A stretch of 64,000 bases of DNA from Shigella phage vB_SboM_Phaginator (OL615012); one strand, 5' to 3'; positions 12,531 to 62,595 are shown, numbered from the stretch's first letter. Notes: generated by a model from the sequence alone, not told the origin. Translations and numbers: made by a program.

Positions 12531-13211
12531 TTATTTTAATGTTACGAAAGAAGAATTGCGTGTTTCACGAATTAAAACTGATCCGTCACGGTTAATGTAA
12601 TAAATTAAGCTAAATAAAGTTTGGTGTGCAGAAGCATGCTCAAAACTAGTTGGGTGAGATTTCCAATCAGGAGTTTCAGCAATCCATTGATAAATCCACC
12701 AAGGAACGGTACAAAATCCTGGATTTTTTCCTAATAGTTGAAGATTTGGACTAAAGTTTTCCGGAAGAGTAAATACAGACGGCTTTTCAGATTCAATAAT
12801 CTCAGCTACAGCCTGTTCGAATTTTTCTTCAACAAAAGGAGTATCTTCAATCAAAACTGAGGTATTTTCAGGAATTTTATCAGTTTCTACTACTTCAATT
12901 TTAATGTCAGATTTAACCGGAGAATCAATCAGAAGTGCTGCTTCTGGATTGACTTCTTCATCGTCATATTTTAACCCCTCTGCAGCATCAGCAGCATTGA
13001 TTAAGTCTTTAATAGATAACCCATCAGTCTCTGGCATAGGTTCACTAGCGAGCTTCTGGAGGGCTTCTTCAATATCAACAACGATATTATCAAAAGATTT
13101 ATTCTTTTTGACCTTTATACCAAACTGTTCAGCATATTCAGCTAATTTAGCTTTAGCTTCTTTGTTATCATCAAGAGCCTTCAGCTCTGCAATATAATCT
13201 TTATCTATCAT
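12531..13211 (-). CDS. inh: Inh, inhibitor of prohead protease (hoc.1)
   Basis: 226-aa ORF immediately downstream of hoc on same strand, as in T4. Confidence 0.75.
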   Translation of the reverse strand: MIDKDYIAELKALDDNKEAKAKLAEYAEQFGIKVKKNKSFDNIVVDIEEALQKLASEPMPETDGLSIKDLINAADAAEGLKYDDEEVNPEAALLIDSPVKSDIKIEVVETDKIPENTSVLIEDTPFVEEKFEQAVAEIIESEKPSVFTLPENFSPNLQLLGKNPGFCTVPWWIYQWIAETPDWKSHPTSFEHASAHQTLFSLIYYINRDGSVLIRETRNSSFVTLK

Positions 13212-23299: not shown

Positions 23300-23302
23300 C
23301 AA

Positions 23303-23330
23303 TGGGGACCGAAAGGTCCCCATATTTTTT
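23303..23330. terminator. Bidirectional terminator between gene 54 and convergent early ORF
   Basis: GGGGACC-GAAA-GGUCCCC hairpin followed by ATATTTTTT. Confidence 0.7.
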
Positions 23331-23619
23331 ATTTACGGAATGAAATAAAAGCAGCAACTGAAGCAACTAAACTGTCTTCAATATAAACTTCAATTTTTAC
23401 CGGAGCTTCTGATTCAAATTTACCTGTTACTACACCCTGAAAAATACTTTCAGTCTGTTCTGGCTTTGAAAAATTTTCAGAAGGAAAAATTCCGAACTTT
23501 TTATCTGTTCCAAAAATTTTGATAAATTCATCGTAAACTGCTTCATTAAAAGCATTATCAGCAGGAATAACGCCTTCAACTACAAGTTCTTGACCTAAAA
23601 AGCGCAAAGAAGATTTCAT
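23329..23619 (-). CDS. Hypothetical protein downstream of alt
   Basis: 96-aa ORF with GAGGA ribosome-binding site and early-promoter-like cassette upstream. Confidence 0.6.
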   Translation of the reverse strand: MKSSLRFLGQELVVEGVIPADNAFNEAVYDEFIKIFGTDKKFGIFPSENFSKPEQTESIFQGVVTGKFESEAPVKIEVYIEDSLVASVAAFISFRK

Positions 23620-23680
23620 TTTGTGTTCCTCATGTTATGTCAGTAAGATTACTATAACACAACACGAGGGACTTGTAAAC
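23620..23680 (-). promoter_or_regulatory. Early-promoter-like cassette (GTTTAC -35, 18 bp spacer, TGnTATAGT -10) with inverted repeat covering the ribosome-binding site
   Basis: Minus-strand GTTTAC (23675-23680), TATAGT (23651-23656); inverted repeat CCUCAUGUU / AACACGAGG; near-identical copy upstream of alc. Confidence 0.5.
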
Positions 23681-25737
23681 TACATTTTGAACTTTTTAGA
23701 CATTCCGTTAATGTTAACCAAAGAAGCTAAGATTTGAGAAACTTCGTTTTCCTCTTCTTTTGATTCTTCTACAAGGAATTGATTAAATCCAGTCATTGGA
23801 CGAACTTCACCAGTTTCCATCAAATGGTCGCCATCATATACTGATTCCTCTAATTGTTCAGAAGGAGGAACGATTGTACCTTCGATTAGATACTTGTTAT
23901 AAGCAGTTTCTTTCATAAAGTACGTACTTACTTTATTAATCTTCAGTAAAATTCCACGTGGTAGAATAACTTCAGCTTCTGATGGAAATCCTGATAAATG
24001 ACCTGGAACGATAACTTTGATTCGCTCAGCTCCTTTAATTACCATACCCACGCTAGTTTCAGCATCTTCATTAGCATATGTAGAATGACTACCCATATGC
24101 ATCAAATCTTCTGCATCAACGGAACCTTCTCCTTCACCAGAAAATACTGCGCCGGAATCATCTAGAGCCATATAGTTTTTACCATGCTCACCGAAGATAT
24201 TTGGTTTAAGCGATGTGGATACGAAGTTCTTGAAATAGAACATTTTGTTTTCAATGTTATGACGCAAAGTTTTAAAGGTAACTTCTTGACCACGGTAAAG
24301 TGTAGTTCCTGGAGGAAGAACTGAACCTTTAGCGAATGCAGAATCAAGCGTCTCAATATGTTTAATAGCTCGTTCCATATATTCTTCACGGGTAGAATCT
24401 GGTTTACCCAAAAGGAACGAGTTCATTTCAACATATGAATCTGCGCAATAATCTTCAATTACATCAGATTCAGCTTGAGTTAATCCTTTTGGAGTTACTT
24501 CGGTGCTCGCGTATTCATATGCCTGAGCGGCAGATTCATTAATCAATTTATAAATGCCATTCATGACAAATTGAATAATAGCTGTCTTTTCATCTGGTGT
24601 AGCTTTAGAACCTTTAACTAAATCATTGATAATTTTCTTAATAACATCAAAGCTATTAGAAATATTAATGTCAGCAAGATCGCTTAAAATTTTATCAGTT
24701 TTATAATCAAAGAATTCTTTATTCTTTAAATATTCTTGAGAACCTTGATATGTTATATCGCTCTGCAACTTGATAGATGGATCACGTAAACGCGCATGGG
24801 CTAATGCAATATGATTTCGGAAACTTTCTAGTTCATAATCATTAGATTTAAAACGAGAAGCACTTCTCATACCACCGATAGCTCCTTTGCTGAAGTTTGA
24901 ACCAATCTGAATAACGCCAGAGTTCATTGGTCCTTCTGCTTTATATACCGGAACTTTAGATTCAAACTCTTGATATTTCTTAGCAGCGAAGCTATCACCC
25001 TGAAGTGAAGCATCAACAGTAGAATATTGAGCTTGTGCTGCTAATCGACGACTAATTTTAGTTTTCTGAATAACAGCTTGATCAGTGCGCTTATCATTTT
25101 CTAAAGCAATAGAAGCAGCAACAGCAACAGCTTTAGGAACAGCATTTCCTGTTTTAACGTCTACATAAACATCACCAACCTTTGATTCAACTTTTGTGAA
25201 TAACTCAGTTGAAATAGGAGGTATACCTGGAATGTCTTCTAAATTGGCATTTTTACGGTAAACCATAATATATGCATATTTCTTATCATAGTCCCAGATT
25301 TCCTTTAAAAGAACATACCGACCTGCTCCTTTAGTACGTACTAAACGGTCAGCAATAACTTGCATTTGACGGGCTGCGCCATTTGTTTTACTTTTTAGTA
25401 CGCGGAATAGGCATGCATCAATTTTATACTGTTTCATTGTTTGAAGAGCAGTATCAAAAACAGCATTAATGACGCCAATTGGATTTCCACCCAAGTTTTT
25501 AAGCTTGACTAACGATAATTTCTCGTTGACACCTATCATTACGATATGCATCATTTTGTCGCCCGGCTTAACGTTTTTATTCGTATCGCCGCCAGAGGTG
25601 TATGTACAAAATCTAAATCCAGGAAGCACGCTTTCTTCGCCGACTTGGATAGCAAAAATTTGTGGTATTTTATGCTTAGGATTTAAGTTAACAACCGGCG
25701 CCGAAGCGCCGTCAAATAATTCTGTAATAAGTTCCAT
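23680..25737 (-). CDS. alt: Alt ADP-ribosyltransferase (packaged, modifies host RNA polymerase), copy 1
   Basis: 685-aa ORF (T4 Alt 682 aa); R-S-E motifs (YRGQ, FVSTSL, EAEVILPRG); N-terminal MELITE resembles a gp21 cleavage/capsid-targeting signal. Confidence 0.9.
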   Translation of the reverse strand: MELITELFDGASAPVVNLNPKHKIPQIFAIQVGEESVLPGFRFCTYTSGGDTNKNVKPGDKMMHIVMIGVNEKLSLVKLKNLGGNPIGVINAVFDTALQTMKQYKIDACLFRVLKSKTNGAARQMQVIADRLVRTKGAGRYVLLKEIWDYDKKYAYIMVYRKNANLEDIPGIPPISTELFTKVESKVGDVYVDVKTGNAVPKAVAVAASIALENDKRTDQAVIQKTKISRRLAAQAQYSTVDASLQGDSFAAKKYQEFESKVPVYKAEGPMNSGVIQIGSNFSKGAIGGMRSASRFKSNDYELESFRNHIALAHARLRDPSIKLQSDITYQGSQEYLKNKEFFDYKTDKILSDLADINISNSFDVIKKIINDLVKGSKATPDEKTAIIQFVMNGIYKLINESAAQAYEYASTEVTPKGLTQAESDVIEDYCADSYVEMNSFLLGKPDSTREEYMERAIKHIETLDSAFAKGSVLPPGTTLYRGQEVTFKTLRHNIENKMFYFKNFVSTSLKPNIFGEHGKNYMALDDSGAVFSGEGEGSVDAEDLMHMGSHSTYANEDAETSVGMVIKGAERIKVIVPGHLSGFPSEAEVILPRGILLKINKVSTYFMKETAYNKYLIEGTIVPPSEQLEESVYDGDHLMETGEVRPMTGFNQFLVEESKEEENEVSQILASLVNINGMSKKFKM

Positions 25738-25740
25738 GAT

Positions 25741-27834
25741 TTATCCTTGAACGAACTTGTAAGGCATGTTTGTAATATCTATGCAAGACGCAATAATTCC
25801 AAGAGATGATTCTACTTTCTGTTTAACATTTGATGAAACAAATGATGCAAAGTCAACTCTGTCTTCTATTTCAATATCATCTGTCATTGCAACTACTTCG
25901 CCGGTTTCCATTAAATGGTCTCCGTCATAGATTACCGATTCGGTGAGTTCTTCTGTGGTCATAACTTCAGCTTGAATGAGTTTTGTATTATTAGATGTTG
26001 TTCCGTCATTATTAGAAGCATCAGTTATTTTATTAACTTTGACCATCAATCCGCGCGGTAGAATAACTTCAGCTTCTGTTGCTATTCCGAGACTTCCTGG
26101 ATATACAACATTAACTTTATGAGCTCCATCAATTGCCCATCCTATTTGAACTTTAACGTATTCAGGATTTTCTTTATACGCTCTTATTTCGCTTGGATTA
26201 ATAGTTATTCCTTCTTCATTTTTATCAACTGTCAATTCATTACGAGCTTCTGGTTCTAAAAGACCAATACCAGCATGTGTAATTCCAAAACGTCCAAAAA
26301 TGATAGGAGTTAAAGAAGTAGATACAAAATTTCTGAAATAGAACACTTTATTTTTAACTAGTGCTTCGTATATAGGAGCAGTCATACTTTGAGCACGATA
26401 AACTGTGATGCCTTCCGGTATGCGGTCACCATTTTCAAAAGCTGAATCTAAGTTATTTATAGCAGATTCAATTTCTTTTTCACTCATTACATCATATCGT
26501 TCTGGATTGTAACGACCTAAAAGAAGATTATTGATGTCAGTATATCCTGAACCGCAATATTCTCTAATGCCACGCTTTTGTGATGGAGTATATTTAGAAC
26601 CATCACGGGCAATAGTAATATCAATCATTGGACCAGCACCAATTCCAGAAAAACTGTAAATCATTCGTTTGAGGAATTTAGTTTTTGCTGCGTTCCAGGA
26701 ATTTTTAGTTATTTCTTCCCAGACTTCATCTGGTTGTCCTTTACGAGTTTTATTATGTTTATCAAGCCAATTATCTTTATATTCTTCAAAGAATTTATTA
26801 ACAGCTGCTGCGTATTTCTCTAAACATTTTATTGAAGTAGTTGGTTCATTTTTGATTGCGTTAAAAATTACATCTTTAATTTTTTCTGAAACTTCATCAA
26901 CCTCACTTTTTGAAAAGAATTTATAGTCATAGTGAAGTTCATTCGCAGTTCCTTCGGCAATAATTTTTGCTGCCTTAGTTTTAGAAGCTAATGAATTAAT
27001 TCCAAGCTTCATTTCTTCTGCTTCGGGAATTAAAGGAGCGGTAGCAGGTTTATTGAAATTAGCTGCGGTAGATTCATACTTCTGGAATAATTCACTTTCA
27101 AATCTAGAAGATTCCAATGATTGACTTTGTGCAATTGCTCTACGGGAAATTTTAACTTTAACGATTACCGCTTGGTCAGAACGTTTATCATTTTCTTGCG
27201 CAATAGATGCTGCAATTGCCTCATTTTTAGTTACTTGGGCTCCAGTATCTTTATTGATATAAACATCACCGACCTTTGATTCAACTTTAGTAAATAGCTC
27301 GGTACTAATTTCCGGAACTCCTGGAATGTCTTCTAGTGATACATTTTTGCGATGTATAAGAATATATGCATACTTTTTATCGTAATCCCAGAGTTCCTTA
27401 AGAAGGACGTATCTGCCACCTGAACGACTACGGATAAGTCTATCAGCAATAACTTGAATTTGTCGAGCTTGGCCAGCAGTTTTAGACTTAAGAATACGAA
27501 GCATACAAGCATCAATTTTATATTGACGCATAGTTTGCATTGCAACAGTAAAAACTGAATTGATATAATTAATTGGGCTTGGACCAAGACCTTTTAATTT
27601 AGCAATTGAACCTTTAGCAGTTAATGTAAAAGGAACAATATGCATCATTTTATCGCCCATCTTTAAATCGCGATTAGTATCACCTCCAGATGTATAGGTA
27701 CATAAACGAAAGCCTGGTTGTTCAATTGCATCATCAACATGAACTGAAAAAATTTGTGGTATTTTCTTCTTTGGATTTAAGTTTGTAATCGGAAGAGTAG
27801 TATCTTCGTCAAATAATTCTGTAATAAGTTCCAT
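25741..27834 (-). CDS. Alt-like ADP-ribosyltransferase paralog, copy 2
   Basis: 697-aa ORF; same N-terminal MELITELFD, conserved first ~230 aa and same R-S-E motifs (YRAQ, FVSTSL, EAEVILPRG), divergent middle region. Confidence 0.85.
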   Translation of the reverse strand: MELITELFDEDTTLPITNLNPKKKIPQIFSVHVDDAIEQPGFRLCTYTSGGDTNRDLKMGDKMMHIVPFTLTAKGSIAKLKGLGPSPINYINSVFTVAMQTMRQYKIDACMLRILKSKTAGQARQIQVIADRLIRSRSGGRYVLLKELWDYDKKYAYILIHRKNVSLEDIPGVPEISTELFTKVESKVGDVYINKDTGAQVTKNEAIAASIAQENDKRSDQAVIVKVKISRRAIAQSQSLESSRFESELFQKYESTAANFNKPATAPLIPEAEEMKLGINSLASKTKAAKIIAEGTANELHYDYKFFSKSEVDEVSEKIKDVIFNAIKNEPTTSIKCLEKYAAAVNKFFEEYKDNWLDKHNKTRKGQPDEVWEEITKNSWNAAKTKFLKRMIYSFSGIGAGPMIDITIARDGSKYTPSQKRGIREYCGSGYTDINNLLLGRYNPERYDVMSEKEIESAINNLDSAFENGDRIPEGITVYRAQSMTAPIYEALVKNKVFYFRNFVSTSLTPIIFGRFGITHAGIGLLEPEARNELTVDKNEEGITINPSEIRAYKENPEYVKVQIGWAIDGAHKVNVVYPGSLGIATEAEVILPRGLMVKVNKITDASNNDGTTSNNTKLIQAEVMTTEELTESVIYDGDHLMETGEVVAMTDDIEIEDRVDFASFVSSNVKQKVESSLGIIASCIDITNMPYKFVQG

Positions 27835-27857: not shown

Positions 27858-27865
27858 TATTTATA
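27858..27865 (-). promoter_or_regulatory. Late promoter (TATAAATA, minus strand) for alt paralog
   Basis: Minus-strand TATAAATA 24 bp upstream of ATG at 27834. Confidence 0.55.
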
Positions 27866-31837: not shown

Positions 31838-32203
31838 TTAAATATCAAATTCGTTGAGAACTACATCAAAGATTGCTTCAAGATGTTCAGGTTTAGCTCT
31901 GTTACTCAGAATATGACGAATCCAAGTTTTAACCAGAAGCTTGCGATTAACACCATTCCAGCAAGGATGAGTCCCTAAATCGCGTTGACGAAAATCATCA
32001 TCCAAAGCGATTTTGAAGTTGGAACCTTCCATTGTGATTGAAACCGTGATGCCATTTTCAAATCGCATATAAACGTAGTTAGAAGTCATATACTGTTCAA
32101 TTTCGCATACTGATCCATTTTGATGTTTCCAAAGGCAAATAGTATCAATAGAACCTGCAATACCATTAGAAACATATTTACGTTCAAAGTTGATGTAGTT
32201 CAT
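31838..32203 (-). CDS. Hypothetical protein
   Basis: 121-aa ORF with GGAG ribosome-binding site. Confidence 0.6.
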   Translation of the reverse strand: MNYINFERKYVSNGIAGSIDTICLWKHQNGSVCEIEQYMTSNYVYMRFENGITVSITMEGSNFKIALDDDFRQRDLGTHPCWNGVNRKLLVKTWIRHILSNRAKPEHLEAIFDVVLNEFDI

Positions 32204-32269
32204 TTTTATTCTCCAAGATGTTTAATTGCGGTACAGGTATATAATATCATATCCTGTACCAAAGTAAAC
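32204..32269 (-). promoter_or_regulatory. Early-promoter-like cassette with inverted repeat around the -10
   Basis: Minus-strand GTTTAC (32264-32269), 17 bp spacer, TATTAT; inverted repeat GGTACAGG / CCTGTACC flanks the -10. Confidence 0.45.
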
Positions 32270-32271
32270 AA

Positions 32272-32604
32272 TTATTTTACTACTTTCCAGTGCTTCATGT
32301 CAAGTTTACCAACTTTTTTCATCTTCTCAATCAAACGTTCGGCACGTTGGCGAGCTGTAACATAATACCATTCACCTAATTCATTTTGTTCAATTTTTCC
32401 AACGATTACTGTATTCAATTCATAAATCCAACCAGTAAAGAAATTATGAACTTGAATTGTAAAAGTGAAATCTGTTCCCATACCTTCTGTTGTTTCTACT
32501 TCAATAATATCACCTTCAACTGCCATTAAGAACCACATAGTTTCATCATATTTACCATTGAAGCATTTAGTTTTAACTGTAGCGTTCAGATTAATCGTTT
32601 TCAT
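32272..32604 (-). CDS. Hypothetical protein
   Basis: 110-aa ORF with AGGAG ribosome-binding site. Confidence 0.6.
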   Translation of the reverse strand: MKTINLNATVKTKCFNGKYDETMWFLMAVEGDIIEVETTEGMGTDFTFTIQVHNFFTGWIYELNTVIVGKIEQNELGEWYYVTARQRAERLIEKMKKVGKLDMKHWKVVK

Positions 32605-32661
32605 TTTATTCTCCTTTGTTTGTGTAAGATAATACTATCACAAAGGAGCTATACTGTAAAC
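32605..32661 (-). promoter_or_regulatory. Early-promoter-like cassette; inverted repeat 3' arm contains the Shine-Dalgarno sequence
   Basis: Minus-strand GTTTAC (32656-32661), 18 bp spacer, TAGTAT; inverted repeat CUCCUUUGU / ACAAAGGAG with AGGAG 6 nt from ATG. Confidence 0.45.
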
Positions 32662-32680: not shown

Positions 32681-32710
32681 AAAATAAAAAAGGACTCCCG
32701 AAGGAGTCCT
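32681..32710 (-). terminator. Rho-independent terminator downstream of 30.9-like ORF
   Basis: GGACUCC-UUCG-GGAGUCC hairpin followed on minus strand by UUUUUUAUUUU. Confidence 0.7.
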
Positions 32711-32714
32711 CAAC

Positions 32715-33384: not shown

Positions 33385-33532
33385 TTAAAAATTCTCGTTA
33401 GAGATTAAAAACTCGGTAGTCACGTTCTTCTGAATTTCATCTTCTTTCGACAGATCTCTCAGTTGTAGACTACCACATAGAATTGTTCGGTTAACTTATT
33501 ATTCCGACACCCAATTCATATTATTATTTATA

Positions 33533-35622: not shown

Positions 35623-35681
35623 TTTGTTTTCCTCATTTGTTTGGTAGAGCTATAATATCACAACTCTACCGTAAAGTAAAC
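35623..35681 (-). promoter_or_regulatory. Early-promoter-like cassette with inverted repeat around the -10
   Basis: Minus-strand GTTTAC (35676-35681), 18 bp spacer, TATTAT; inverted repeat GGTAGAG / CTCTACC. Confidence 0.45.
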
Positions 35682-38082: not shown

Positions 38083-38432
38083 TTAGAAAGGTCCTGGATG
38101 TCTTCTGCGAACTTGTTGAAGGAGTTGTTGATTTGTTTTTCAACCAATCCTGGCTTATGAGCCACCACATCCGCCTTCTTTGCGTCTTTGCGCAGTTTTT
38201 CATTTTCACGCTCAATAGCAGCAATTGCCTCACGATTTTTATTATTCATCGCATCAATATAATTATACTGAATTCGCAAATTATTTAATGCTAAGGCGTT
38301 TTCATTGGCTGTTTTTGTAATTTCAGTAACTGATGTTTCTAATCTTTCTACCTTATTTTTTAAAATAATAGATGTTCCGCCAAATGCTATTACAAGTAAT
38401 AGCAATCCAGCTGTAAAATTACTTACATGCAT
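38079..38432 (-). CDS. Inner-membrane spanin (i-spanin)
   Basis: 117-aa ORF with single N-terminal transmembrane helix (AGLLLLVIAFGGTSIIL) then charged helical periplasmic region. Confidence 0.7.
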   Translation of the reverse strand: MHVSNFTAGLLLLVIAFGGTSIILKNKVERLETSVTEITKTANENALALNNLRIQYNYIDAMNNKNREAIAAIERENEKLRKDAKKADVVAHKPGLVEKQINNSFNKFAEDIQDLSK

Positions 38433-38929
38433 AAAGTTTTAATAACCTCTATAATATCGTCTTGAGAAAGACCGTTAATTAAAATATGATGTTCAGCCGG
38501 AGATTTAGAAATTTTAAAGCATGCCTCAACATCTTCTGCCATATCCGATGCGCTACGATTTGGATTACTAATTCCAAGACGATGTTTTCCCGTCAAAGGA
38601 TTAACGATGATATAGCATTTACAGCTATTGATATGAACATTAGGCTGAGTCTGATTAATGAATACTTCGCACTCATACTTAGCGAGTTGATTTTCTAAAA
38701 AGACTTTCATCTCTTCAACCGCATCAGGAAGCATATCACGGGCTTGCTCAAGACGACGATTTCGATATTCTTTAATGGTCGTTTTCCGCTTAACTTGCTT
38801 AGCTAAATCTTTCTTAAGATCGGTGATATATCCAACTCGACGATTTCCTTTGAATACAGAAATCCCATCTGTAGTATCACCGTATGCTTCAACGACCATT
38901 TCAGTAGTAATGAGCTGCAAATCCATCAT
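38423..38929 (-). CDS. alc: Alc, inhibitor of host (cytosine-DNA) transcription
   Basis: 168-aa ORF at the T4 alc position between pseT.3 and rnlA. Confidence 0.75.
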   Translation of the reverse strand: MMDLQLITTEMVVEAYGDTTDGISVFKGNRRVGYITDLKKDLAKQVKRKTTIKEYRNRRLEQARDMLPDAVEEMKVFLENQLAKYECEVFINQTQPNVHINSCKCYIIVNPLTGKHRLGISNPNRSASDMAEDVEACFKISKSPAEHHILINGLSQDDIIEVIKTLCM

Positions 38930-38987
38930 AAAGTCCTCATGTTATGTCAGTAAGACTACTATAACACAACATGAGGGACTTGTAAAC
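38930..38987 (-). promoter_or_regulatory. Early-promoter-like cassette upstream of alc (second copy of the 23620-23680 element)
   Basis: Minus-strand GTTTAC (38982-38987), 18 bp spacer, TGnTATAGT; perfect inverted repeat CCUCAUGUU / AACAUGAGG covering GAGG ribosome-binding site. Confidence 0.5.
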
Positions 38988-46713: not shown

Positions 46714-46956
46714 TCAAATAGACTTTTTCACAATTTTCCAATCAGCTTTAAACTGCTCGACGTCAGAATGATAAATCCAGAATCCTGCGCTTTCTCCATC
46801 CTCATAAAGAGGGCATCTATCACATTCATCTTCCCATCCCATATCACGTAAAAGATGTTCAGCTTTTTCAACAAGTTCAGAATCTTTACCGATGATATTA
46901 AAATACCATTTACCTCTAACTTCCGAATCTTTGATGCTCTGACGTTGTAATCTCAT
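46714..46956 (-). CDS. Hypothetical protein (frd.2 position)
   Basis: 80-aa ORF with GAGGAG ribosome-binding site. Confidence 0.6.
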   Translation of the reverse strand: MRLQRQSIKDSEVRGKWYFNIIGKDSELVEKAEHLLRDMGWEDECDRCPLYEDGESAGFWIYHSDVEQFKADWKIVKKSI

Positions 46957-47014
46957 TTTATTCTCCTCAGTAGTTGATAAGGCTATAGTATCATTACCAT
47001 AGCCCGTTGTAAAC
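46957..47014 (-). promoter_or_regulatory. Early-promoter-like cassette with inverted repeat around the -10
   Basis: Minus-strand GTTTAC (47009-47014), 18 bp spacer, TACTAT; inverted repeat GGCTAT / ATAGCC. Confidence 0.45.
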
Positions 47015-47675: not shown

Positions 47676-47748
47676 ATTATTTTCCTCTTTAATCATCAGC
47701 AGTATTGCCGATAGTTGTATAGTACCATGGAAGGACAAGGATGTAAAC
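47676..47748 (-). promoter_or_regulatory. Early-promoter-like cassette
   Basis: Minus-strand GTTTAC (47743-47748), 18 bp spacer, TACTAT (47719-47724). Confidence 0.45.
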
Positions 47749-62442: not shown

Positions 62443-62595
62443 TCAATTAGTTGACTTTATTATAATATCATCAGACGCTTGATTTGTAAACTGGTCTGTG
62501 TTATTTTCTTCAAAAATTTTTTCTACGAATTCCTTGAACGACTCACGTTCCTGAGCTACATTATGCTCGATTACCTTTTCAAGATTATGACTCAT
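62443..62595 (-). CDS. Small acidic ORF (50 aa) between arn and asiA, missing from ORF track
   Basis: My translation: MSHNLEKVIEHNVAQERESFKEFVEKIFEENNTDQFTNQASDDIIIKSTN; ATG overlaps arn TGA stop (ATGA); no clear ribosome-binding site. Confidence 0.4.
   Translation of the reverse strand: MSHNLEKVIEHNVAQERESFKEFVEKIFEENNTDQFTNQASDDIIIKSTN

Follow-up and report, generated by a model that had tools for sequence, protein, structure and literature searches.

Early promoters and hairpins in the window

The 57 nucleotides (nt) at 32605-32661 of a 64,000-nt stretch of DNA from Shigella phage vB_SboM_Phaginator (OL615012; the whole stretch is called the window here) lie immediately 5' of the ATG of gene 30.8 on the minus strand. 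They contain a promoter whose -10 element sits inside an inverted repeat, and the present work concerns this element, its counterparts elsewhere in the window, and their possible effect on translation. The window is that of a Tequatrovirus (T4-like) phage. A 1.4-kb stretch around the element shares 99.7% identity with phage REP1 and 98.6% with RB3-group phages, and the minus-strand gene order, 31 / rIII / 30.9 / 30.8 / 30.7, is that of T4. The features are collected in Table 1.

Seven minus-strand sites consisting of GTTTAC, a 17-18 bp spacer, and a TA(T/C/G)TAT -10 element had been pointed out in the original prediction, which left the recurring cassette unnamed. Its motifs (GTTTAC, TGn, -10) identify this cassette as the classical early promoter of T4, whose architecture comprises a UP element, the -35 element GTTTAC, TGn, and the -10 element (PMC2988021, PMC1524935). 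The pattern GTTTAC-N16-19-TANTAT matched the window seven times, six of them on the minus strand, against 0.34 matches expected (~20-fold enrichment), and none of 100 shuffles reached seven. Using the fuller T4 early-promoter pattern GTTTAC-N13-16-TGnTAnnnT, we obtained eight minus-strand matches. These included all seven predicted sites, although the proposed -10 hexamer did not hold at 23620-23680 and 38930-38987, where it is TATAGT; the eighth match, 5' of asiA, was absent from the earlier list. A generic sigma-70 scan of the window found 68 candidates against 72.8 expected and hence no enrichment, which indicates a signal particular to the T4 early consensus. Each of the eight promoters lies 21-37 nt from an ATG with a Shine-Dalgarno sequence (SD), has A/T-rich UP flanks, and is followed directly by an early-strand gene.

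T4 itself has all eight promoters at orthologous sites. In the record of phage Lutter (NC_054924), a 'promoter' is annotated at the equivalents of the 30.8 promoter (a 30-nt stretch) and the 30.7 promoter, and the T4 record names 'Pe133295' at the equivalent of the cd.2 promoter. Apart from one misc_feature note, the T4 RefSeq and GenBank records contain no promoter features. The 30.8 and 30.7 promoters were reportedly mapped by primer extension by Truncaite and colleagues in 2006.

RNA from GTTTAC to the ATG was then folded and compared with 200 dinucleotide shuffles. Six of the seven sites were said to have an inverted repeat around the -10 element, and the same six gave significant hairpins: alc (-24.8 kcal/mol, z -6.2), the alt.-3 homologue (-23 kcal/mol, z -5.3), 30.8 (-14.6 kcal/mol, z -3.4, with a 22-nt loop), 30.7 (z -5.5), cd.2 (z -5.4), and frd.1 (z -3.6). 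Only 0-1 of the 200 shuffles were equally stable in these cases. The candidate hairpin at the seventh site, the frd.3 promoter, was rejected (z -1.6, not significant); the T4 spacer differs there and has no hairpin. No hairpin was found at the asiA promoter (z 0.07).

The six hairpins fall into two classes. In class A (30.8, alc, and the alt.-3 homologue), the 3' arm includes the SD, and these are exactly the three sites for which this had been predicted. In class B (30.7, cd.2, and frd.1), the SD is untouched. None of these sites differs from a T4 early promoter as such; in addition, the 'free' nucleotides of the spacer double as a hairpin arm. In the window sequence, no U-tract follows any of the six hairpins, so they are not canonical intrinsic terminators.

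The class A elements of alc and the alt.-3 homologue are near-identical cassettes of ~57 nt (38931-38987 and 23625-23680), 15 kb apart and with few differences, one of which is a G/A change that preserves pairing (G.U vs A-U). This duplication is also present in T4, and the alt.-3 promoters of MX01 and KpnM6E1 are without an alc-type cassette. The cassette appears to have been copied within Tequatrovirus.

Table 1. Genes, predicted promoters, hairpin arms, and terminator discussed in the text, in window coordinates
Feature	Position	Strand	Remarks
96-aa open reading frame (ORF), homologue of T4 alt.-3	23329-23619	-	
P1, early promoter of the alt.-3 homologue	23651-23680	-	near-identical copy of the alc cassette
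P1 hairpin, 5' arm	23657-23672	-	
P1 hairpin, 3' arm	23625-23640	-	with SD GAGG
Late promoter TATAAATA	27858-27865	-	5' of two alt paralogues
P2, early promoter of gene 30.7	32241-32269	-	pattern match; Lutter annotation
P2 hairpin, core arms	32253-32260 and 32230-32237	-	brackets the -10, SD free
Gene 30.8 homologue, 110 aa	32272-32604	-	ATG at 32602-32604
P3, promoter of gene 30.8, -35 element GTTTAC	32656-32661	-	
P3, -10 element TAGTAT	32632-32637	-	TGn before it; within the hairpin loop
P3 hairpin, 5' arm CTCCTTTGT	32640-32648	-	in the promoter spacer, hence 5' of P3's own start
P3 hairpin, 3' arm ACAAAGGAG	32611-32619	-	with SD GGAG
Intrinsic terminator after gene 30.9	32690-32711	-	~30 nt 5' of P3; annotated as terminator in Kha5h and Lutter
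Late promoter TATAAATA	33525-33532	-	5' of rIII; 'promoter' at the same place in Lutter
P4, early promoter of cd.2	35652-35681	-	T4 'Pe133295'
P4 hairpin, arms	35659-35670 and 35643-35654	-	brackets the -10, SD free
alc, inhibitor of host transcription	38423-38929	-	
P5, early promoter of alc	38958-38987	-	GTTTAC ... TGT TATAGT
P5 hairpin, 5' arm AAGTCCCTCATGTTGTGT	38964-38981	-	in the spacer
P5 hairpin, 3' arm ACATAACATGAGGACTT	38931-38947	-	with the alc SD
P6, early promoter of frd.1	46985-47014	-	
P6 hairpin, arms	46995-47005 and 46980-46990	-	-10 hexamer in the 3' strand, SD free
P7, early promoter of frd.3	47719-47748	-	
P8, early promoter of asiA	62462-62491	-	

Accessibility of the ribosome-binding site

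We next calculated how much free energy it takes to melt positions -14 to +3 around the ATG, a quantity referred to as the opening cost of the ribosome-binding site (RBS). Two RNAs were compared, a read-through RNA extending from 40 nt 5' of GTTTAC through +18, and an own-start RNA with an assumed start 7 nt after the -10 element. The opening cost was 12.3 kcal/mol on the read-through RNA vs 0.5 on the own-start RNA for 30.8, 18.0 vs 4.2 for alc, and 14.4 vs 3.6 for the alt.-3 homologue. At the three class B promoters, the two RNAs differed by no more than 2.2 kcal/mol, and the RBS was not sequestered.

For calibration, the same cost was computed for 70 annotated genes of a 47-kb T4 segment, where the median was 4.5 kcal/mol. 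T4 alc (16.9) and alt.-3 (14.9) ranked first and second, followed by I-TevI (14.5), gene 38 (13.0), and 30.8 (11.6), which was fifth. Established T4 cases gave 15.4 (e), 15.8 (49), 9.0 (soc), 13.1 (I-TevII), and 16.1 (segB) by this metric. The original prediction held that read-through transcripts could fold a hairpin that hides the RBS, and that hairpins too weak to occlude it would count against this idea. The class A costs (12.3-18.0 vs 0.5-4.2 kcal/mol) are comparable with those of the proven T4 cases, and the folding of the two kinds of leader agrees with the prediction.

It had also been proposed that transcripts from the local promoter lack the 5' arm. In the computed structures, this arm is located between the -35 and -10 elements. 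For this reason, transcripts made from the own promoter must lack it, and a start site 5' of the arm is excluded, if the promoters are active. The interpretation is thus supported computationally at three sites, which represent two independent cassettes.

Burial of this type is known. In T4 e, soc, 49, and I-TevI, as well as in Aeh1 mobE and T4 segB, the SD or AUG is buried on long RNA initiated upstream, while the transcripts of an internal promoter, located in or beside the 5' arm, are without this arm and are translated (PMC3014915). The class A opening costs are in the same range as those of e, soc, 49, and I-TevI. In that type, however, the nested promoter is late (gp55, TATAAATA) or middle, and translation is confined to late transcripts, whereas in class A a sigma-70 early promoter is nested, its -35/-10 spacer supplies the 5' arm, and translation from early transcripts only is predicted. 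No TATAAATA late promoter was found inside the class A hairpins. The likeness to e and soc drawn in the original prediction therefore holds for RBS burial relieved by an internal promoter but not for timing, which is reversed, so that class A would be a mirror image of these cases.

Possible sources of read-through RNA were examined in the window. No terminator was found between rnlA and alc, and the rnlA stop codon is directly 5' of the alc promoter. Similarly, there is none between the alt paralogues and the 96-aa ORF, the next being at 23302-23323; transcripts from the late promoter 5' of the alt paralogues would for that reason enter the alt.-3 promoter cassette and the 96-aa ORF. Read-through RNA is plausible at both alc and the alt.-3 homologue. 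At 30.8, the late promoter 5' of rIII is a source of transcripts toward 30.9, its terminator, and 30.8, and the hairpin might act there as a second barrier behind the terminator.

Two further observations concern the alt region. The paralogues are two tandem full-length alt-like ADP-ribosyltransferase genes on the minus strand (23680-25737 and 25741-27834); T4 has one alt and the remnants alt.-1 and alt.-2, and MX01 has three copies. The element at 23302-23323 is a perfect bidirectional terminator hairpin (ATGGGGACC-GAAA-GGTCCCCAT) that separates the 96-aa ORF from the homologue of baseplate gene 54, the two being convergent. A T run follows its plus-strand stem, with no comparable run after the minus-strand stem.

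Covariation and generality of the hairpins

The upstream regions of alc were compared in 14 lineages. A hairpin that buries the SD, formed by pairing of the early-promoter spacer with the SD region, was present in 10 of them (the window phage, T4, Dhakavirus, Jiaodavirus, Gelderlandvirus, Karamvirus, Moonvirus, Bragavirus, Winklervirus, and Marfavirus), and the sequences of the arms differ widely. Examples of arm pairs are GTCCTCATGTT/AACATGAGGAC, ATCCTCATCAG/CTGATGAGGAT, ATCTCCGTTTAGTT/AACTAAACGGAGAT, and AACCTCTCATTTT/AAAATGAGAGGTT. In an alignment-free partner-swap test, the duplexes between each spacer and its own leader summed to -207.6 kcal/mol, compared with -116.9 +/- 12 kcal/mol for swapped partners, and none of 100,000 permutations matched the observed value. 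A helix-registered alignment, which is fitted to the helix by construction, showed compensatory changes in 11 of 11 pairs and a covariation score of 1.16 vs 0.29 after shuffling (0/500); its share of paired cells fell from 97% to 39-52% when the partner was slid. In a plain MAFFT alignment of the alc leaders, the arms were out of register and RNAalifold predicted no pairs. The lineage comparison, the partner-swap test, and the helix-registered alignment support maintenance of the alc hairpin by covariation across genera, at least nine in number.

For 30.8, the related-locus search with gp30.8 gave nine close loci, and BLAST hits and retrieved regions were used instead. An outer arm position varies between C and T in close relatives, giving C-G or U.G, both of which pair in RNA. 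Dhakavirus has a different arm pair, TCTCCGG/CTGGAGA, and no arm pairing was found at 30.8 in Jiaodavirus and Muldoonvirus. Class B hairpins showed covariation as well. The cd.2 arms are GGTAGAGTT/AGCTCTACC in the window vs the compensatory GGTAGGACT/AGTCCTACC in MX01, and the frd.1 arms are GGGCTAT/ATAGCC vs the likewise compensatory GGAGCTAT/ATAGCTCC in KpnM6E1 and GGGTAGTAGT/ACTATTACCC at the T4 promoter at 146143.

Several details of these promoters are recorded here in their own right. An unannotated ORF of 22 hydrophobic aa, MFAPYIMAAVMLVCLYLLIKAC, follows the T4 early promoter at 146143 (T4 ~146018-146083, between frd.2 and frd.1). It is missing from the window, where the promoter directly precedes frd.1 (46957-47014), and this places an indel exactly at the promoter cassette. 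At cd.2, a note in the T4 record on 133300-133313 (window ~35650-35663) reads 'inverted complement of previously reported sequence' and corrects the early promoter Pe133295 between cd.2 and cd.3. These 14 bp cover the -10 hexamer and adjacent bases, in the center and loop of the cd.2 promoter hairpin. The inverted stretch could be an old sequencing error that the palindrome provoked, or else it may hint that the segment can flip. A second spacer motif, (C)CAC-AAGGA(T/C)-GTG(G), forms a short inverted repeat entirely within the -35/-10 spacer of several early promoters of T4 (2458, 50973, 167086) and of other genera.

We then extended the comparison to 31 strict early promoters identified in 131 kb of T4. 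The duplexes between each promoter's upstream part and its own leader summed to -389.3, compared with -272.1 +/- 15.3 for permuted partners (0/200,000), and the own leader was the best of 31 partners for 12 of the 31 promoters. Further promoter hairpins that bury an RBS in T4 are those of regB, denV, nrdC.8, motB.2, modB, and a gene of the ndd region, while those of dmd, ipI, ipII, ipIII, motB, and others bracket only the -10 element. The modB promoter (T4 13130-13186) has a variant geometry, in which the -10 region ATGATAGC, and not the spacer, is the pairing partner of the start codon region GGAGGCTATCATG; its opening cost was 17-19 kcal/mol on read-through RNA vs 2.1 on own-start RNA. Stem-loops 5' of ipIII, ipII, denV, and orf61.9 (regB) are said to have been considered possible by Valerie and colleagues as early as 1986.

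Some pairing could arise from the consensus elements themselves. The upper stem of class B partly pairs GTG (TGn region) with TAT (-10), both of which are consensus elements, and an anti-SD-like CCTC in a spacer pairs with any SD. Against chance stand the dinucleotide shuffles, so rarely as stable as the real sequences, and above all the two partner-swap tests, which keep all consensus elements and effectively refute it. We give chance next to no credence.

The same helices bear on whether the repeats act in DNA or in RNA. In every case the -10 element is flanked by the two arms, how early promoters are shut off is not understood (PMC3014915), and the 14 bp that the T4 record notes as an inverted complement lie between the cd.2 arms. 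These points would suit a DNA element that modulates the promoter, be it a cruciform, a recombination hotspot, or the target of a dimeric regulator, such as one involved in early-promoter shut-off. However, the arms differ at every promoter, leaving no common protein site; the class A loops of 20-25 nt disfavor cruciform extrusion; and two of the eight promoters (frd.3 and asiA) have no significant repeat. In addition, G.U pairs of the helix would be G.T mismatches in DNA, and they made up 27 of 422 pairs in the main helices, with only one A.C apposition. Sense duplexes were more stable than antisense duplexes (-554.7 vs -486.9), and of 30 comparisons, 21 favored sense and 8 antisense (p = 0.003); the set had been picked on sense-strand folds and is therefore biased. 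Over whole minimum-free-energy structures, G.U counts were symmetric (48/564 sense vs 49/589 antisense). G.U tolerance and sense-duplex stability moderately favor a function in the mRNA-sense transcript, and we consider an effect at the DNA level very improbable.

A candidate early-only translational gate

The intergenic gaps concerned are ~60 nt long, and the spacer and leader would be the only unconstrained nucleotides in gaps that hold an early promoter. In class A, the -35/-10 spacer may have co-evolved to complement the downstream leader, including the SD. Read-through RNA, whether delayed-early, middle, or late, would hold both arms and fold a hairpin of -15 to -25 kcal/mol that buries the RBS. 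RNA from the own promoter, starting ~7 nt after the -10 element, would lack the 5' arm and leave the RBS open. Translation of a class A gene would then be essentially limited to the time during which its own early promoter is firing, as behind an early-only translational gate. From the sequence comparisons and folding, we think it rather probable that the class A RBS is open only on transcripts from the own early promoter and hidden on read-through RNA.

Several observations weigh against this reading. The alc hairpins of Tegunavirus TG1 and Kanagawavirus KLB31 bracket only the -10 element and leave the SD free, and among the 14 lineages, the upstream regions of PS2 and NHEP11 showed no hairpin. 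Because these four deviate, SD burial is neither the sole selected feature nor indispensable. Half of the six window hairpins, those of class B, need an explanation other than RBS burial. Since the alc and alt.-3 cassettes are copies of one another, the window offers only two independent class A cases, and the 30.8 hairpin is the weakest of the three. At 30.8, moreover, little read-through RNA may exist because of the terminator ~30 nt upstream. A ribosome that completes translation of the upstream cistron could also open the hairpin and allow coupled re-initiation. The bias of the sense-strand set and the symmetric whole-structure G.U counts belong here too, and all of the support is computational.

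Much of the arrangement resembles the promoter-early stem-loop cassettes (PeSLs) of T4-type phages, with which it shares an A/T-rich region, early promoter, stem-loop, SD, and ATG (Arbiol et al. 2010, PMC2839356; Comeau et al. 2014, PMC4122927). PeSLs are recurring, copyable cassettes, as are the alc and alt.-3 elements here. Their stem-loops have been interpreted as terminators or attenuators and as recombination sites; pairing of the spacer with the SD is not described there, and the words 'translation' and 'hairpin' are absent from the main text of the 2010 paper (PMC2839356). The inverted repeats of the window could likewise attenuate or terminate upstream transcription and supply homology for gene shuffling, with SD overlap being incidental. 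In RB49 and phi1, the PeSL stem-loops are often found in the -35/-10 interval or extend over the -10 element, and one of them reduced lacZ downstream of it as a strong terminator would (PMC2839356). For PST/T4 PeSLs, the published promoter is TTTACW-N17-TAYWAT, and the terminator, promoter, SD, and ATG at 30.8 reproduce their layout (PMC4122927). In these, however, the stem-loop is placed 5' of the promoter, and its counterpart here is the 30.9 terminator, not the -10 repeat (PMC4122927).

Gain or loss of ORFs and duplication of the PeSL type were also found. The alc and alt.-3 cassettes are near-identical 15 kb apart, the alt.-3 promoters vary among genera and elsewhere do without that cassette, and T4 differs from the window by the small ORF located exactly at the 146143 promoter cassette. 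The lack of SD involvement in three of six hairpins also fits this explanation. Nevertheless, all six hairpins lack a following U-tract, and a genuine terminator already lies upstream of the 30.8 promoter. Homology for recombination needs no self-complementarity, which leaves arm-by-arm compensation at an orthologous site across genera unexplained, as well as the fact that the 3' arm always covers the SD in 10 of 14 alc lineages. As an account of the hairpins in general, we regard the PeSL explanation as unlikely. Class B hairpins themselves may be the Tequatrovirus counterpart of PeSL stem-loops, most likely serving as attenuators or 3'-end stabilizers on upstream transcripts.

RNA stability has to be considered as well. 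The RegB/S1 target consensus is GGAGRAYARAA (PMC1702504), and RegB is inhibited by secondary structure (PMC3014915, PMC1702504). The SD regions of 30.8 (32604-32614), 30.7 (32203-32216), and frd.1 (46956-46968), all on the minus strand, consist of GGAGAAUAAAA, an exact match to this consensus; of the three, the 30.8 copy alone lies within a hairpin stem. Because the buried GGAGAAUAAAA is a perfect RegB target, read-through RNA of 30.8 should be protected from RegB by the hairpin, while promoter-proximal RNA would stay cleavable. Through the hairpin, access of RegB is thus predicted to differ between RNAs made from different promoters.

The primary role of the hairpins might even be to keep GGAG out of reach of RegB (and other sites out of reach of RNase E) on polycistronic RNA, or to block 3' exonucleases after cleavage, with loss of translation as a side effect. 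The exact consensus match at 30.8 would fit such a role, as would the 16 RegB-resistant T4 RNAs with GGAG in stable structures (PMC1702504, PMC3014915). Such a hairpin is also present at regB's own promoter, and class B hairpins lie 10-25 nt 5' of RegB-type SD sequences. On the other hand, alc and alt.-3 of the window, whose SD (GAGGA) is without GGAG, have the strongest hairpins, and the GGAG of denV resists RegB through 3' sequence and not through structure (PMC1702504). A stabilizing role is compatible with translational gating and does not exclude it; as the primary function, we find it decidedly improbable.

Promoters of this kind, promoter-plus-stem-loop cassettes, and RBS sequestration relieved by an internal late or middle promoter are already known. 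An early promoter whose spacer serves as an anti-SD arm, or covariation of such an arm across genera, was not found in the accessible literature, outside which the older T4 papers largely lie, and earlier mention of individual hairpins in those papers is likely. These genes are not discussed in the main text of the T4 omics paper.

The gate may not be confined to the window. It is possible, although we lean slightly toward doubt, that roughly a third of T4-like early promoters (alc, regB, denV, 30.8, alt.-3, nrdC.8, motB.2, modB, and others) are early-only translational gates, which would silence the cistron on every read-through transcript and shield its RegB site. If so, immediate-early protein synthesis would stop at early-promoter shut-off although the genes are still transcribed. 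T4 is a reference system for temporal gene control, and the abrupt stop in the synthesis of many of its early proteins has been called incompletely understood (PMC3014915). If the proposed gate is real, a hairpin linking immediate-early translation to its own promoter would be a simple cis-acting layer in early shut-off. It would also explain why seemingly free nucleotides of early-promoter spacers are conserved or covary, and it would give PeSL stem-loops a second, translational role. For the annotation and engineering of T4-like phages, it would mean that promoter spacers are not freely changeable.

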